64,000 nucleotides of DNA from a virus. This document shows positions 7,545 to 62,443 of the stretch, one piece after another. Every line of letters begins with the position of its first letter. The first letter of the stretch is position 1. Below the pieces are notes generated by a model. It had not been told where the DNA came from. It worked only from the letters and a program-made list of their open reading frames with translations, and ran no database searches. The stretch covers positions 87,783 through 151,782 of the IMG/VR virus record IMGVR_UViG_3300025000_000061. The stretch is one strand, 5' to 3'. Made by a program: the position numbers and the translations under genes.

Positions 7545-7608
7545 AAATACCATTCATAAATAAATTATTAATTAATAAAATAAAAATAAATGGAGGAATA
7601 TTATACAT

Positions 7609-8766
7609 ATGGCAACTGCAAGAAAAGGTGGCAAAGTTCAAAGTAAAATTCAAATGTTATTGTTTGGACTTCAAGGATCAGGGAAAAGTACTATTGCATC
7701 ACAATTTTTATATTTAAAACGTCCAGATGGAAAACCATTAAGAGTTTTATATTTAGATGGAGAATCTGGCTCAATTGACGATATGCTTGAAGCAATAGAA
7801 AATGATAATATAAATTTAGAAAATTTATATATTGTTTATACTCAATCATTAAAAGAAGTAAATCAATACATAGAAAAAGCAACAAAAAAAGAACCATTTT
7901 ATGAACTTGATGATAAGGGAAAAGAAGATTTTGACAAAATGATATTAGATGCAGATGGTGAACAATTTATACCAGATGCTATTGTTGTTGATGGAACGTC
8001 AGTTTTAAATTTGGCAGTAAAACAAGGTATAATTGAATTTAGTAAAAAAAGAGCAAATGTTAAAGCAGAAAGAGATAAATTACTAGGTGAAGAAAAATTC
8101 GTAAAAGTTGAAGGAGCAGGTATTGAATTAAAAGACTATAATACCATTAATTTTAAAGGACAAGATTTAGTATTAACCTTAACTGGAAGTGGATTGCATT
8201 ATATTGTTACTGCCAGAGAAGTTGATGAAAAAATATCTATTAAAGATTCTGAAGGGAAAATTACTTCTATTTCAACTGGTAAAAAGATACCAGAAGGATT
8301 TAAAGGTATGGGATATAATGTAAAAACAGAAATGAGATTGTTTAGAGAAGAAGATGATATGGAGTTAGTTAAAGCACATGTTATTAAAGACAGAACTAAA
8401 ACATATCAAAACGGTGAAATAGTAGAAGACCCTTCATTGTTTGCTTTTCAAACAGTAATTGATAAAACTAAAGATCATAAAGATGTTGTTGTGCAAAATA
8501 GATTGCATGATGCTATTAAACAAGAATTAAAAGAGACTGAAAAAGAAATATTGGGTAACGAAATTGACGAAGAAACAATTGACAAAAATAATATTGATGA
8601 TATTGAAATATTAAAAAATCAATTAATGGATAAATTAAAGTCCTTAAGTCCTAAAGAAAAGGAAACTGCTAAAGAAAAACTTAGAGTTAAGGGATTACCT
8701 ATTAGTTTTAAAAGTGTAACTAATATAGATATTATTAAAAATGCTTTGTTAGTAATGGAAGAATAG
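7609..8766 (+). CDS. AAA/RecA-like ATPase (Sak4/YorG-like recombinase)
   Basis: GLQGSGKS Walker A, LYLDGESGS, IVVDG Walker B, KDRT. Confidence 0.8.
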   Translation: MATARKGGKVQSKIQMLLFGLQGSGKSTIASQFLYLKRPDGKPLRVLYLDGESGSIDDMLEAIENDNINLENLYIVYTQSLKEVNQYIEKATKKEPFYELDDKGKEDFDKMILDADGEQFIPDAIVVDGTSVLNLAVKQGIIEFSKKRANVKAERDKLLGEEKFVKVEGAGIELKDYNTINFKGQDLVLTLTGSGLHYIVTAREVDEKISIKDSEGKITSISTGKKIPEGFKGMGYNVKTEMRLFREEDDMELVKAHVIKDRTKTYQNGEIVEDPSLFAFQTVIDKTKDHKDVVVQNRLHDAIKQELKETEKEILGNEIDEETIDKNNIDDIEILKNQLMDKLKSLSPKEKETAKEKLRVKGLPISFKSVTNIDIIKNALLVMEE

Positions 8767-55549: not shown

Positions 55550-55675
55550 ATGAAAGTAACAATATCAAAACCACCATCGGAAAAAGCATTAAAAAATTGC
55601 ATTAAAGTATTATTGGATATAATTGAAAAAAATAATTTATATGATAAATATTTACCATTAAAAGTATCTAAATGA
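55550..55675 (+). CDS. 41-aa protein, candidate recombination directionality factor
   Basis: GGGTGA RBS; last small ORF of the early arm before attP, as for SPbeta sprB. Confidence 0.45.
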
Positions 55676-55737
55676 TACTTTTATTTTTTTATAAATTGGT
55701 TACTATAAATACAATGATAGATTGGAGGATAAAAAAT

Positions 55738-55893
55738 ATGTTTAGAAAATCAAATCATTTAATTCATGAAAAATCTCCGTATTTATTACAACATGCTTAT
55801 AATCCTATTAATTGGTTTTCATGGAGTCCTCAAGCATTTAATAAGGCAAAAAGAGAGAGTAAAGCTGTATTCTTATCAATAGGTTATTCATAA
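55738..55893 (+). CDS. yyaL: Phage-borne 5' fragment (51 aa) of a YyaL/SSP411 DUF255 thioredoxin-domain gene
   Basis: [21 protein letters not shown]...FLSIGYS; GGAGG RBS. Confidence 0.88.
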
Positions 55894-55897
55894 TGTT

Positions 55898-55947
55898 TTT
55901 TTACTTTAGTCAACCTGTCATTGGTGTCATGTTTGCTAAAGTAAAAA
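55898..55947. other. Putative attP of the serine recombinase
   Basis: 50-bp dyad, perfect 12-bp outer arms, centre TG 55922-55923, 6 bp from the recombinase stop; core encodes STCHWCHV. Confidence 0.85.
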
Positions 55948-55953
55948 CTTATG

Positions 55954-57471
55954 TTAATAAAATTGTATATCTAATTCAGCTTCATTGTCATCAATTCTAG
56001 TCCATACAATTTTTTCAATTATTGATTTATAGAATTTATTTTTTTCTTCAGCAGTAATATCTTCTTTATTTAGATTGTCTAATACTTTATTAATTGTAAA
56101 AATTTTATCATCAATAGATTTAATCTGATCAACATTTAAAGAATTCTCTAATTCATCTATCTCAACATCAACCTTTTCAATTTCATTTTCCCATTTAGAT
56201 TTTCTATCTAACCATTGTTCTCTAGTATAGTCACCTAATTCATATGCTTCATTAACTTTTTCTAAAGCTGTCTTAAATTTATTTAATTGTTTGCTTTTTT
56301 GTTTTATTATTAATTCTATTTTTTTATTGTCTTTATTTATTTCTGTAGGCATATTATTAATTAAATTATCACGATAATTAATTATTGCTAATAAAACCTC
56401 TTTCGATATTTCTTCAATATTACCAGAACGATTAGGACACTTATTGCCAAAAGCATCAATATACCAACAAGGTTTCATATAAATTTTCTCAGAATTTTTT
56501 TTCTTTAAAAAAGTTATAGAATATCCACATATACTACACTTAATAATTCCAGAAAATTCAAATACACCTTGCTTTGCTCTTGAAGGTGTTTTATTTCTTT
56601 GTTTAAATAATTCTATAATTCTATTATGTTCTTCTATGGTTTTTACTGGTAAATGGCAATTCTCAACAACAATCCACCTATCTCTAGAGTAATTAATTAT
56701 CTTTTCTCCTTTTCGAGTATTGCCTTTAGTTTTATTGCTGATTATTTTTCCCAAATGAGTTTCACTTAAAAGTAATCTTTGCACAACAACACCATACCAT
56801 TTACTACCACGTTCATAAGGTGTAGGAATACCTAATTTATTTAATTCAATTGCAACATTTTCAACTGTTAATAATTTATCAAGAAATAGAGACTTAATTA
56901 AATTATAAGTCGATAATTTTTCTTCATCTATAATTAAACCTTTTGTTTGAGGATTATATTTATATGGGATAGGTGCTGTTCCATTTGTCCAATTGCCCAT
57001 CTTGCTTCCAATTTTCTTACCACGCAACATTCTTCTTTTGATCATCTTATATTCCTGGCGACTCATAAAGGAAATTAATTCCAGAAATGTTTCATCATCT
57101 TCATTTTCTAAATTATAAACTTTATTAGGAGTAATAATTAATGTACCAGACTTTTTAAATATTCTTTTAATTTTTCCAGAATCTTCCTCTGAACCTCTCG
57201 ATAATCTGTCATAATCTACAACTAATACAGCGTCAAATAAATCATTTTCTATATCTTCAAGTAATCTAATCATCTCAGGTCTACCATCAATACTATCACC
57301 TGAAGCAACTTCTTTATAAATTACATATCTTAAATTATGCATTTTAGCAAAATCTGTTAATAATGAATTATGTTTTTCTAATGTTTCGTCTGTTTCTTCC
57401 AGACCTTTCGCCCTTGATTTACGCAAATATATAGCAACATCTTTTATTATTTCTGATAATTTATTTTCCAT
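55954..57471 (-). CDS. Large serine recombinase (integrase, SprA/SpoIVCA-like)
   Basis: YLRKS catalytic Ser, SG..RP, DRLSR, recombinase domain, CSICG Zn ribbon, coiled coil. Confidence 0.96.
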   Translation of the reverse strand: MENKLSEIIKDVAIYLRKSRAKGLEETDETLEKHNSLLTDFAKMHNLRYVIYKEVASGDSIDGRPEMIRLLEDIENDLFDAVLVVDYDRLSRGSEEDSGKIKRIFKKSGTLIITPNKVYNLENEDDETFLELISFMSRQEYKMIKRRMLRGKKIGSKMGNWTNGTAPIPYKYNPQTKGLIIDEEKLSTYNLIKSLFLDKLLTVENVAIELNKLGIPTPYERGSKWYGVVVQRLLLSETHLGKIISNKTKGNTRKGEKIINYSRDRWIVVENCHLPVKTIEEHNRIIELFKQRNKTPSRAKQGVFEFSGIIKCSICGYSITFLKKKNSEKIYMKPCWYIDAFGNKCPNRSGNIEEISKEVLLAIINYRDNLINNMPTEINKDNKKIELIIKQKSKQLNKFKTALEKVNEAYELGDYTREQWLDRKSKWENEIEKVDVEIDELENSLNVDQIKSIDDKIFTINKVLDNLNKEDITAEEKNKFYKSIIEKIVWTRIDDNEAELDIQFY

Positions 57472-57690
57472 GATATTACCACCTTTAAAATAATGTTATG
57501 GAGAATAGTAATAGATATAGTATTCTACATGGAAAGTAAATTATCCTTTTAGAACTAAAAAATTTATTAAAATTGATTTAAAATTATTGAATTAATATGT
57601 ATACTTTATATGGAAATCTGATATAATGAATATTAGGATAGTGAAATTGAAAGATTTAATTAGATTTGATGAATAAGGAGAGTGAAATTA

Positions 57691-58914
57691 ATGGGTATTG
57701 CTGAGAAGGAGATTGGAATGGAAAATGAAGTTAATACTACAATTAATACTGAAATTAAGAGAAACAAAATAGGTATATTTGTAGGTGAAAAAGATATTCG
57801 TAAAGATTATGAGATTAACAATGTAATTACAACAATTCGTAATGACCAAATATTTTCTTACAATTTTAATTTACCAATTTCAACTATTTGTAATTTTATG
57901 GATTCAGATATACTTCAATATATGCCTGAGATACAAAGAGGGAAAAAATTGCTAAGAGGTATTGAAAGTCCACTGATTAATACAACTAAAACGAAAGAAA
58001 TTGCGGAATGTATCATGAAAGATGAATTTTTTGGAGGAACATTAAGTTTTGTTATTATTGAATCATACCTTGATAAACCAGATGCTAAGTTTGAATATGA
58101 TGAAGATAATAATACCATAAACTGTAATCTACCTATATTTTGTGTTGACGGAATGCACAGGGTGTCAAGTGCAAGAATTATAAATGATTTATGGCATAAA
58201 GTTAAACGTAATAAAGATGGTATGATTGATCCTGAAAAATATGAATTTCCCATATCACTTATTATATGTTCGATGGATGATGCTAAACGTATTTTTTCAC
58301 AAAGCACTTTAAATTTAAAAATTAGCAAAGTTAGAAGCGAAGTGTTATCTATAGGTACGTATAAAAATATGATCACAAATGAAATAATTAAAAATAGTGA
58401 CTTACGTAATAAAGTAGAAAAGTATGTTTCAAATATCAAAAATACAAACAATATAGTAACTTATTCCGTTTTAAGTACACAAATAGATAATCAATTCAAA
58501 CCTAAAACTAAACTTGAAAGTGAAGAAATTGCTTCATATTTAACCGACTTTATGAATTTTTTAGTTTACTTATTCCCCTACAGCATGGGTGAGATGGATA
58601 TTACCGAAAGAAAACTTGGTAGAGAAAGAGATTATAGTATTGAACTTTTAATGTGGCAAGGGTATATCGCAGTTGCTAAAGCATTATATGGAGATGAAAA
58701 TTGGAAAGAAAAACTTAGAAAATTGAAACAATTAATAAGAATAAAAAATTGGGAAGGGTTCTTTTTAGATAGAACAAATCCAATTTGGAATCATGTTAAA
58801 AAAGGTGATGGAAAATTAGTAAATAGTAGTGCAACACAAAGTTATGTAAGAAAAGTATTTGTTATGTTTATTACTAACGAGAAAGAATTTTTTGAAATAG
58901 CAGATAAAATTTGA
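57691..58914 (+). CDS. DndB/DGQHR (ParB-like) domain protein
   Basis: IQRG, CVDGMHR, IF...L motifs. Confidence 0.75.
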   Translation: MGIAEKEIGMENEVNTTINTEIKRNKIGIFVGEKDIRKDYEINNVITTIRNDQIFSYNFNLPISTICNFMDSDILQYMPEIQRGKKLLRGIESPLINTTKTKEIAECIMKDEFFGGTLSFVIIESYLDKPDAKFEYDEDNNTINCNLPIFCVDGMHRVSSARIINDLWHKVKRNKDGMIDPEKYEFPISLIICSMDDAKRIFSQSTLNLKISKVRSEVLSIGTYKNMITNEIIKNSDLRNKVEKYVSNIKNTNNIVTYSVLSTQIDNQFKPKTKLESEEIASYLTDFMNFLVYLFPYSMGEMDITERKLGRERDYSIELLMWQGYIAVAKALYGDENWKEKLRKLKQLIRIKNWEGFFLDRTNPIWNHVKKGDGKLVNSSATQSYVRKVFVMFITNEKEFFEIADKI

Positions 58915-58972: not shown

Positions 58973-59644
58973 TTAGGCAACAACTAAATTTCTATCTTTT
59001 AAAAACTTTAACACTTCATCATAATCTTCTTCTTTTACTTTAATTTTAATAGTTTTAAATTTCTGCTTTTTAACAAAACTCCAAGCATCATTATTATTTA
59101 TTAAATTCCAATCATTATCTTTTCTATATAAATGAATATATTTATTTTCTATTTCTCTTATTTCTTTTTCACTTAACCCTTCACATACCTCTATAATTTC
59201 AAAAGTAGCACCTTCTTCTAACATTTCTGAGGTAAAAGGAACATTATTATTAATTTTATTATTATGTTTTAAAAACCTCTTTCTAAATCCTTGAATTGTT
59301 GAACCTATGTATATATTGTTATCTAACACTATTTTATAAACACCAATTTTATTTTCATCTTTTTCATAAATTAAAAAACTAGGAAAATATTTTCGACTAT
59401 TATTTTTACTTCCTATAGACTTCCCTCTATTATCAATTTTTTCTATAGGCATTTCAAACACCTCATCAATTATAAATTTTTGACCATCTTTATGCCATTT
59501 AAAATATCTTTCCCAATTTGCAATTTGTAATAATCTACTTTTACCTTGTTTTTCTTTCTCTTCTAAAAGAAAACACATTTCTTTATAATTTTTAATTGCC
59601 ATATCTATAGATAATTTAATTTTAATAATATTTTCTAAATTCAT
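58973..59644 (-). CDS. GIY-YIG nuclease-domain protein
   Basis: GVYKI..IYIGST..RF.KH..E...I...N. Confidence 0.8.
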   Translation of the reverse strand: MNLENIIKIKLSIDMAIKNYKEMCFLLEEKEKQGKSRLLQIANWERYFKWHKDGQKFIIDEVFEMPIEKIDNRGKSIGSKNNSRKYFPSFLIYEKDENKIGVYKIVLDNNIYIGSTIQGFRKRFLKHNNKINNNVPFTSEMLEEGATFEIIEVCEGLSEKEIREIENKYIHLYRKDNDWNLINNNDAWSFVKKQKFKTIKIKVKEEDYDEVLKFLKDRNLVVA

Positions 59645-59683
59645 TATTATCACTCCTTTGTTCTAATTGTTTGAATTAAATAA

Positions 59684-59893
59684 TTAACTAAATATAATTT
59701 TATTTATCACTTCTTTTTGTTCTGAATAATTTTTCATAGCATTTCTTATTTCAGGTGATTCTCTAAATATAAATACATTTTTATTTTTATCTTTTAAATC
59801 AATGCGTTTATCAATTAAAATAAATCTACACATCATTAAAAAACCAGCCATTGCTTGCGAATGTATTATTACTGCTGGAATTTTTTCTTCCAT
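59684..59893 (-). CDS. Small protein (DUF5659-like)
   Basis: AGFLM..F.L......VFIF..S pattern. Confidence 0.6.
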   Translation of the reverse strand: MEEKIPAVIIHSQAMAGFLMMCRFILIDKRIDLKDKNKNVFIFRESPEIRNAMKNYSEQKEVINKIIFS

Positions 59894-59934
59894 AAAATAT
59901 CAAACTCCTTTAAACAAAAAATTGTATTAAAAAA

Positions 59935-60717
59935 TTATTTCATATTATTAATTCTAGGAATAATAATATCATTTATGTATTTATCATTTATTTCAGTAGC
60001 AATCCAACTTCTATTATACCTAATACATGATTCTATTTCTGTTCCACTTCCAGCAAAAGGTATATATATTAAATTACCTTTATTGCTTAATCCTTTTACA
60101 ATCCAATCGCTAATTTCATTACTTTTTTGAGTAGGATGTTCAGTTCTTAATTCCTTTTTCATATATGGTTTAGATGGTGCTTTTAAAATTGAAGTAGGAA
60201 ATCTATAACCATTATTTTCTGTAATTATATTTTGATAATCTATATTATGATTTTTACTTTTTGTTTTATCATTATTTCTATTACGAACATACTCGTTTCC
60301 TTGTGTTTTTAAATCATTTATATTAAAAACACAATTTGATACATTAGATTTCTTTTTCTTAAAAACTATAAATTGTTCATGTATTTTCATTGGTATATAA
60401 TTACTATTCCACATTGCTCCTGGTTTCTCCCATATCTCTTCAAATCTATAAACAAAATCATTTTCTAATGCTTCAATTAATACAAAACTTAACATAGGTT
60501 GTTGACCCCAAATAACTAATTGTCCATTATTTTTTAAAATTCTATTATATTGTTCAAATATACCTTCAATTTTATAAGAAGAATCCCAATTAACTTTATT
60601 TAATGGTAATTTACCATATGGTTTATCTTCAATTATTAAATCAACACTTTTTTCAGATAATTGTTTCATAAAATTAATACAATTATCATTATAAATTTTA
60701 TTAATTTCAATTATAAT
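59935..60717 (-). CDS. N4/N6 DNA methyltransferase (beta class); probable ATT/ATA start
   Basis: INKIYNDNC upstream extension, DKPY motif IV, HPTQK, PFAGSG. Confidence 0.85.
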   Translation of the reverse strand: MIIEINKIYNDNCINFMKQLSEKSVDLIIEDKPYGKLPLNKVNWDSSYKIEGIFEQYNRILKNNGQLVIWGQQPMLSFVLIEALENDFVYRFEEIWEKPGAMWNSNYIPMKIHEQFIVFKKKKSNVSNCVFNINDLKTQGNEYVRNRNNDKTKSKNHNIDYQNIITENNGYRFPTSILKAPSKPYMKKELRTEHPTQKSNEISDWIVKGLSNKGNLIYIPFAGSGTEIESCIRYNRSWIATEINDKYINDIIIPRINNMK

Positions 60718-61648: not shown

Positions 61649-62443
61649 TTATTTATTATTAGTAATAATACGATCAAGCATTGTGAATAGTAACCATGCT
61701 TGAACTGGTTCTGCTAATTTCTTTTTCCAATCTTCTGCATTATTAATTAGACCTTTATTAGCAAGATTATCTAAACTTTTAATTCCTGATTCTTCCATCC
61801 ATTTTTCGATTGCCATATCAATTAACTCCTCCTTATCAATTACTTTATCTACTTTAATACCTAAAAAATCTCCAATACCTTGAGCAATAGCAAATGCCAT
61901 CTTATCTTGAAATTCAGGATCATTTAACATTTTTTCTTCTTCTGGATTTGAAATAAATAGCATTTCTATAAGTGTAGCAGGACATTTTGCATATTTTATT
62001 ACATAGAATTTTGCTTCTTTATCAGGATCACCATCAGATAAATCTTCTCTATATATTAAATTAGGAAATGTTGCTTTAACTTTTGAATGAATTTTAGTTG
62101 CTAAAATATCAGAATAATTCTGACCAGGAGTTGTAAAAATCTCAAATCCCCTAGCGGTAGAATTATTACAAGAGTTACAATGCAGACTTACAAAAACATC
62201 TGGATTATAACCATTAGCAATTTGCATACGTTTAACTAAATCTTGACTTAAATTAGAAGGCCAAGATACTTTATCACTATCTCTTGTAAAACATACATCT
62301 ATACCAGCAGATTTTAGATAATTTGCTACTTTAAATCCAACAGACATATTAATATTTTTCTCTTGTGTTCCATTTATTCCCAAAGCGCCTGAATCATAAC
62401 CACCATGCCCATAGTCTATGCAAGCGAGTTTATTCATAAACAA
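61649..62443 (-). CDS. Endolysin, N-acetylmuramoyl-L-alanine amidase (Amidase_3)
   Basis: DYGHGG.DSGA, EK, VSLHCNS, LIEMLFISN. Confidence 0.95.
   Translation of the reverse strand: MFMNKLACIDYGHGGYDSGALGINGTQEKNINMSVGFKVANYLKSAGIDVCFTRDSDKVSWPSNLSQDLVKRMQIANGYNPDVFVSLHCNSCNNSTARGFEIFTTPGQNYSDILATKIHSKVKATFPNLIYREDLSDGDPDKEAKFYVIKYAKCPATLIEMLFISNPEEEKMLNDPEFQDKMAFAIAQGIGDFLGIKVDKVIDKEELIDMAIEKWMEESGIKSLDNLANKGLINNAEDWKKKLAEPVQAWLLFTMLDRIITNNK

Follow-up and report, generated by a model that had tools for sequence, protein, structure and literature searches.

The 50-bp imperfect dyad described here is very probably the attP site of the large serine integrase encoded immediately beside it, the target of the enzyme being the CHWC codons of a host yyaL gene. 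The attP sites of large serine recombinases are imperfect dyads of ~50 bp with a central crossover dinucleotide, usually located beside the integrase gene. The stretch of DNA analysed, hereafter the window, comprises the last 64 kb of a viral record of 151.8 kb, and all positions are given within it. In the complete record phage genes lie on both sides of the dyad, only one core is present and there is no yyaL 3' part, so the site is read as an attP; a prophage junction, which was considered as an alternative identity, is ruled out on the same grounds. The features of the region, with the evidence on which each is based, are as follows.

55898-55947, no strand: attP, an imperfect dyad of 50 bp (P arm, core and P' arm), from the repeat search, the chance check and its conservation beside the integrase in 14 close-clade contigs.
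55922-55923, no strand: predicted central (crossover) dinucleotide TG, with which the Trp codon begins, from the dyad axis, the same axis in six other lineages and the attL/attR divergence points in G180, L054 and L055, which bracket TG.
55913-55932, + strand: 20-nt core, reading T-C-H-W-C-H-V (first two bases only of the last codon) as the yyaL active-site codons, from variation confined to third codon positions among 14 sites.
55898-55909, + strand: outer P-arm motif, presumed to be the DBD2/zinc-ribbon binding motif, with positions -24 to -16 nearly invariant in the clade and mirroring 55936-55947.
55936-55947, + strand: outer P'-arm motif, with positions +16 to +24 invariant in the clade.
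55954-57471, - strand: large serine integrase of 505 aa, transcribed towards attP, from Pfam, PHROG and PDB matches.
55738-55893, + strand: copy of yyaL codons 1-51 with a ribosome binding site (RBS), ending in G-Y-S and then TAA directly before the P arm, from a match to Pfam PF03190 positions 2-47 (E 1e-17).
55550-55675, + strand: 41-aa ORF with an RBS, a candidate recombination directionality factor (RDF), from synteny in the clade and a complex model.
55661-55690, + strand: terminator-like hairpin with a T-run after the 41-aa ORF, read from the sequence.

The outer arms (55898-55909 and 55936-55947) are perfect reverse complements of 12 nt each, 26 nt apart, and the sequence is in this respect exactly as the initial annotation had it, including the inner symmetry. 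The repeat search lengthens the arms to 23 nt (55898-55920 and 55925-55947), with 83% complementarity and a 4-nt gap, and places the axis between 55922 and 55923, i.e. between the T and the first G of a TGG that belongs to the S-T-C-H-W-C-H-V reading at 55910-55933; the annotation's placement of the dyad centre in the Trp codon of CHWC is confirmed by this axis. Chance was gauged with 100 first-order Markov shuffles, which are approximately dinucleotide preserving. Arms of 23 nt with a 4-nt gap and at least 19 matches occur at a single locus in the window, compared with a mean of 0.04 and a maximum of 1 in the shuffles. Perfect 12-nt arms separated by 20-32 nt give 14 register hits at five loci in the window (shuffle mean 0.77), the remaining four loci being long hairpins elsewhere.

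The stop codon of the integrase gene lies 6 nt from the dyad. The encoded protein has the Resolvase (PF00239), Recombinase (PF07508) and Zn_ribbon_recom (PF13408) domains, all scoring over the Pfam cut-offs, and thus the domain architecture of a large serine recombinase with zinc ribbon and coiled-coil insert; it also has the N-terminal Arg/Ser motif. Its match to the integrase family phrog_95 has an E value of 2e-78, and the closest solved structure is that of SPbeta YokA/SprA (E 7e-44), with which residues 9-498, i.e. approximately the full length, can be aligned. Arg17 and Ser19 of the Y-L-R-K-S-R motif, by family precedent the catalytic residues, are invariant in an alignment of 19 integrase sequences. 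The identity of the enzyme to its closest phage-collection matches, which are from SPbeta-like Staphylococcus phages, is only ~31%. With regard to its surroundings, the adjoining 410-aa ORF (57682-58914) matches phrog_5732, a family of unknown function, and no Pfam family over the cut-off, and the regions at 58973-60669 and 61649-62443 encode a GIY-YIG nuclease, an N6/N4 DNA methylase and an Amidase_3 endolysin; the best phage match of the latter, at 34% identity, is to the 176-kb Moorella phage MTATph1.

Integrases 61-94% identical to that of the window over the matched part were identified on one viral contig and ~20 metagenome contigs, and ENA and Logan gave integrases at 67-82% identity. 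The same dyad is present in the same place beside the integrase in all 14 of the close-clade contigs whose sequence extends to the site (their integrases being 61-82% identical over the matched part), all of the close relatives observed being in the attP form. The initial assignment of an attP to the flank of a large serine recombinase gene is supported. In the 14 sites there is almost no variation at positions -24 to -16 and +16 to +24, and the 20-nt core varies solely at -8, -5, -2, +5 and +8, the wobble bases of the codons for Thr, Cys, His, Cys and His; in a position-unrestricted search that allowed two substitutions, all the substitutions landed on wobble positions, and the Thr codon lay beyond all of the search patterns used to find the sites. 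This codon-like evolution is best explained if the core must match, or is repeatedly copied from, a host yyaL gene.

More distant integrases extend this picture. In six lineages at 33-48% integrase identity, i.e. L011 (with L037/L038), L012-L020, L021, L022, L006 with L047, and G180, the arms are unrelated to those of the window, i.e. they co-vary with the integrase lineage, and the T|G axis of the same Trp codon is retained. The proposal that attB lies in the conserved CHWC codons of yyaL is therefore upheld by the cores of the 14 close relatives, by the axis of the six further lineages and by hybrid attL and attR sites in integrated relatives. Crossover at the TG of the Trp codon is likewise supported, with the exact cut site a prediction from these comparisons.

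The integrated relatives, the integrases of which have 27-42% identity to that of the window, have attL and attR sites that are P/B hybrids (G180 at both ends, L005, L006 and L056 at attR, and L047 at attL), and in G180 the outer halves, once joined, restore attB. At loci L005, L006, L055 and L056 of bacterial genome bins, attR consists of a P arm and core followed by a yyaL 3' ORF of 550-640 aa, the overall order being integrase or integrase remnant, yyaL 5' fragment (G-Y-S and stop), P arm, core and yyaL 3' ORF. In L047, and in upstream fragments in L050-L054, attL consists of a yyaL 5' end that is unbroken through C-H-W-C, followed by a P'-type arm. In G180 (L057 and L058; G180:C12:436000-470000) both element ends are present on one contig, 26,072 bp apart, within yyaL. 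The G180 integrase is 33% identical to that of the window and converges on the yyaL 5' end, with the geometry of the window. When the outer halves are joined in silico at T|G, a frame of 692 aa results, alignable to residues 2-671 of a full YyaL; the inner halves, joined likewise, form an attP dyad with the same axis. The cargo of the 26-kb G180 element comprises a type I R-M system, GmrSD, an ADP-ribosylglycohydrolase and IS21; it is a defence island, not a phage. The initial annotation had also anticipated lysogens in which yyaL is split between CH and WC: such splits do occur in distant relatives, at both ends in the case of G180, but none was found for this phage.

Several of these loci have features suggestive of later events. 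A second, older relic of attL type lies 4 kb further out in G180 and points to repeated use of the site. In L053 (2028-2183 versus 4569 onwards) and L054 (3742-3569 versus 2417 onwards) an attL-type relic is followed 1-2.4 kb downstream by an intact yyaL, and the two have identical 5' sequences; this arrangement suggests that gene conversion removed the P-arm insert and locked the element in. In L049 (G028:C1:667527-668056, in a complete genome of 2.94 Mb), L066 and L068, a 47-52-nt insert with a G+C hairpin breaks yyaL after G-Y-S, with no integrase within 15 kb and no second yyaL 5' copy in the genome; it looks like a scar from recombination between two 5' copies that deleted the element.

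By analogy with the standard chemistry of large serine integrases, an integrase dimer would bind attP with DBD1 on the inner half-sites (~11-13 nt on each side) and DBD2 on the nearly invariant outer motifs (~14-24 nt), and a second dimer would bind attB, i.e. the T-C-H-W-C-H-V coding stretch of host yyaL. Cleavage of both duplexes at the Trp-codon TG would be followed by subunit rotation and rejoining of the ends. The predicted attL would then carry the host yyaL 5' end as far as C-H-W joined to the P' arm, with the frame closing three or four codons on and the integrase gene converging on it; the predicted attR would carry, in order, the 41-aa ORF, the phage 51-codon yyaL copy and its stop, the P arm and the host yyaL 3' part. 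The integrated state would thus have no full-length YyaL with a CxxC motif, and precise excision would restore it. Loss of full-length YyaL in lysogens, with recovery on excision, is most likely the consequence for the host, and we infer both the activity of this copy of the integrase and attP and the nature of the host.

Excision by large serine integrases is directed by an RDF, and the initial annotation had included one in the set; the candidate for this role is the 41-aa ORF, which lies directly outside the P side of attP throughout the clade. A complex model of the 41-aa protein with integrase residues 290-505 scores 0.72, compared with 0.02 for the best control, against a mark that is reached by 58 of 80 solved complexes and two of 110 mismatched pairs, a calibration that holds only roughly for a run made with its own alignments. 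Three runs share at least 91% of contacts, and the pLDDT of the 41-aa partner is at least 68. The modelled contacts involve a strand added to the integrase C terminus (497-505), together with residues 354-366 and 456-486, at the DBD2/coiled-coil junction, and it is at this junction that verified RDFs bind (PMC12286644). Likeness to the known SPbeta structure of integrase with RDF (9dxd) may account in part for this pass. By sequence, the 41-aa ORF matches nothing in Pfam-like, PHROG or PDB searches, and hhalign of its family against the ORF in the same place in G180 gave a weak match only (E 0.003, probability 11%), to which we give no weight. Taking the synteny and the predicted binding together, the 41-aa ORF probably acts as the directionality factor for excision. 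The hairpin that follows it was missed by the terminator consensus scan, its stem having too few G-C pairs; an equivalent hairpin abuts the P arm in those relatives without a yyaL fragment.

A further feature of the window is the phage-borne copy of the yyaL 5' end. After the 51-codon fragment there are 19 nt, which constitute the outer P arm, and the yyaL reading then resumes in a different frame. The copy also occurs in L024/L025, in L022 and in the integrated relatives, most of the 14 close-clade contigs being without it. At 25 distinct junctions (L005-L073) the stop always follows directly after the Ser of G-Y-S, even though the P arms that come next are unrelated between lineages. At 7590-7720 of the 137-kb viral contig L022 the phage-borne fragment is driven by a near-consensus TTGACA-17-TATAAT promoter and an RBS, and the integrase is on the opposite side of the fragment to that in the window.

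The presence of this copy raises the question of whether the attP assignment is right and yet yyaL stays on in the lysogen, the phage 5' copy and host 3' part being decoded into a working YyaL by a ribosomal hop from Ser to Ser 22 nt downstream, by restart or as a two-piece protein. We consider this very unlikely, though it has points in its favour: the take-off and landing codons in the window are both TCA, with a stop immediately after take-off; the 5' copy is intact, has an RBS and appears constrained, with 10 synonymous and seven non-synonymous codon changes relative to L024; and among the best 120 of 1305 short YyaL N-terminal ORFs in the protein database, ~110 end exactly at G-Y-S. The junctions speak against it. 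The insert ranges from 13 to 52 nt at the 25 junctions, in all three frames (modulo 3 it is 0 in eight, 1 in five and 2 in 12), identical take-off and landing codons are present in only four of the 25, and a start in frame before C-H-W-C in seven; the combination of matched codons, stop after take-off and conserved gap that characterizes programmed bypass of the T4 gene 60 type does not hold across them. L024 and L025, the nearest relatives, have inserts of 24 nt, with TTA where the landing codon would be, and in the window the CHWC frame has a TAG right before the second TCA and no start codon thereafter. The TCA match itself has a simple explanation, namely that in the inner P half-site the copy of attB extends outwards by three more bases. 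In-frame read-through of the insert was rejected, the 22 nt of the window being out of frame, and ribosomal hopping as a general rule was rejected on the small number of matched codons and the variable gap; the 5' copy rebuilds yyaL by no general rule. In L060 (G187) and L061 (G184) the inserts after G-Y-S-stop are of 18 nt and in frame, with ATG or TTG directly before S-T-C-H-W-C, and at these loci expression of yyaL as two separate pieces could occur.

A piece of host gene adjoining a dyad is also what aberrant excision yields, and the genome searches found no lysogen of the clade, so it might be supposed that the dyad is a dead or hybrid site, i.e. what remains of an imprecise excision in which the yyaL 5' end was picked up, the phage having since ceased to integrate at yyaL. 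A junction captured in this way would, however, be an attL with a B arm on its left, whereas both arms here are of phage type and mirrored; the two-armed site is kept in 14 diverged contigs that mostly lack the yyaL fragment; and the integrase ORF is intact, with its catalytic motif invariant in 19 relatives. A dead site is accordingly highly improbable. The suggestion that the dyad is a mere RNA hairpin, acting as a two-way terminator between the convergent yyaL fragment and integrase gene, is scarcely credible. The dyad does lie between convergent ORFs and would form a long stem, but the stem is not followed by a T-run on either strand, its 3' arms ending in A-runs, and a terminator scan found nothing. 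Moreover, the core is conserved as codons with wobble changes that ignore pairing, the axis lies in the same Trp codon across lineages with unrelated arms, and integrated relatives are split exactly at the axis. A functional attP directed at yyaL remains the preferred reading.

The use of this target appears to be widespread. Two surveys of genomes were made, both with PF03190. In a Syntrophomonadaceae sample yyaL is split in nine genomes and intact with an upstream relic in seven, which together with the fragments-only genome G046 amounts to 17 of 46 yyaL-bearing genomes; in a class-level sample a split or relic at the CHWC codons is present in ~18 of 77. These figures suggest that the CHWC codon is a busy integration hotspot, with an element, scar or relic in a quarter to a third of the yyaL-bearing genomes of the two Firmicute groups sampled. 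Many hosts of the wider yyaL-targeting family are spore-formers, including Alicyclobacillus, Paenibacillus, Clostridium, Syntrophomonas and Sporomusa.

With respect to the host of this phage, an integrase sequence search of 185,579 species genomes found the integrase clade absent, a clade-alignment search of genome contigs gave solely relatives at 25-42% identity, and neither for this phage nor for its close clade did the genome searches reveal a lysogen, an attB or a host. Pattern scans of viral contigs with the P'-side and P-side half-sites returned just one relative, which was already known. The yyaL fragment of the phage is at most 82% identical to any short ORF and at most 78% identical to any full-length YyaL in the protein database, and the best full-length matches are spread over many taxa, so the fragment did not identify a host; because of these identities, the sequence of the host attB is a prediction.

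The system can be compared with several well-studied ones. SPbeta of Bacillus subtilis encodes the integrase SprA (YokA) and the RDF SprB (YotN), its attB is inside spsM and precise excision restores the gene (PMC4191935, PMC5499854). Like the phage of the window, SPbeta is a large phage; its integrase is the closest relative of known structure, and its attP likewise lies between the integrase gene and a small RDF gene, the latter a candidate in the window. In both systems attB is inside a protein-coding gene, in the case of the window by prediction, the targets being spsM and yyaL, respectively. No sequence similarity to SprB was detected in the 41-aa ORF, and sporulation-controlled excision is a feature of SPbeta, where it has been shown. 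To our knowledge, SPbeta does not carry a copy of the 5' end of its own target.

The Listeria phage A118 integrase (LI) has its attB in comK and is a structural model for attP and attB half-sites. A118 shares with the window a ~50-bp imperfect dyad with a central dinucleotide, integration into a coding gene, inner half-sites common to attP and attB and an outer DBD2 motif that lies further out in attP; the target genes, comK and yyaL, differ, and LI gave no match past the threshold in the PDB sequence search. At ~20 nt, the core common to attP and attB is long for a large serine integrase. Among developmental rearrangements in spore-formers, the skin element with SpoIVCA in sigK and the gin element in gerE resemble the yyaL system in that a serine recombinase element interrupts a coding gene that excision reconstitutes, and in that many hosts of the yyaL family form spores. 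By contrast with the window, which represents an intact phage in the attP form, they are defective elements fixed in sporulation genes, with excision specific to the mother cell.

The kind of system is thus known from SPbeta/spsM, A118/comK and skin/sigK; yyaL as a target is not. A literature search found nothing linking yyaL or DUF255 to a serine recombinase, a prophage or an attB, nothing describing the CHWC codon as an integration hotspot and nothing tying yyaL to an excision switch of the sporulation type; we know of no demonstrated link between yyaL and sporulation, and the analysis gave no support to the initial suggestion of an excision-controlled gene switch as a regulated, sporulation-linked event. 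The yyaL-targeting large serine integrases apparently constitute a whole family that is undescribed.

The integrase, attP, predicted attB and candidate RDF make up a complete set, built around an enzyme only ~31% identical to characterized phage integrases; genome engineering requires sets of this kind as orthogonal tools. Because the 20 nt of coding sequence that are targeted stay nearly unchanged wherever yyaL exists, the attB sites may be unusually portable. A separate and tentative proposal, which we think unlikely, is that the 5' copy (51-58 codons, translated, with a stop after G-Y-S, outside the P arm) is a selected add-on of the yyaL-targeting integrase family. If the copy were functional, the site would be more than an ordinary attP. 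Partial YyaL function might then be kept in lysogens of some family members, via a two-piece protein, restart or bypass; the add-on could instead shield attP from ribosomes, or, in hosts that form spores, it could turn yyaL into a reversible switch governed by excision.
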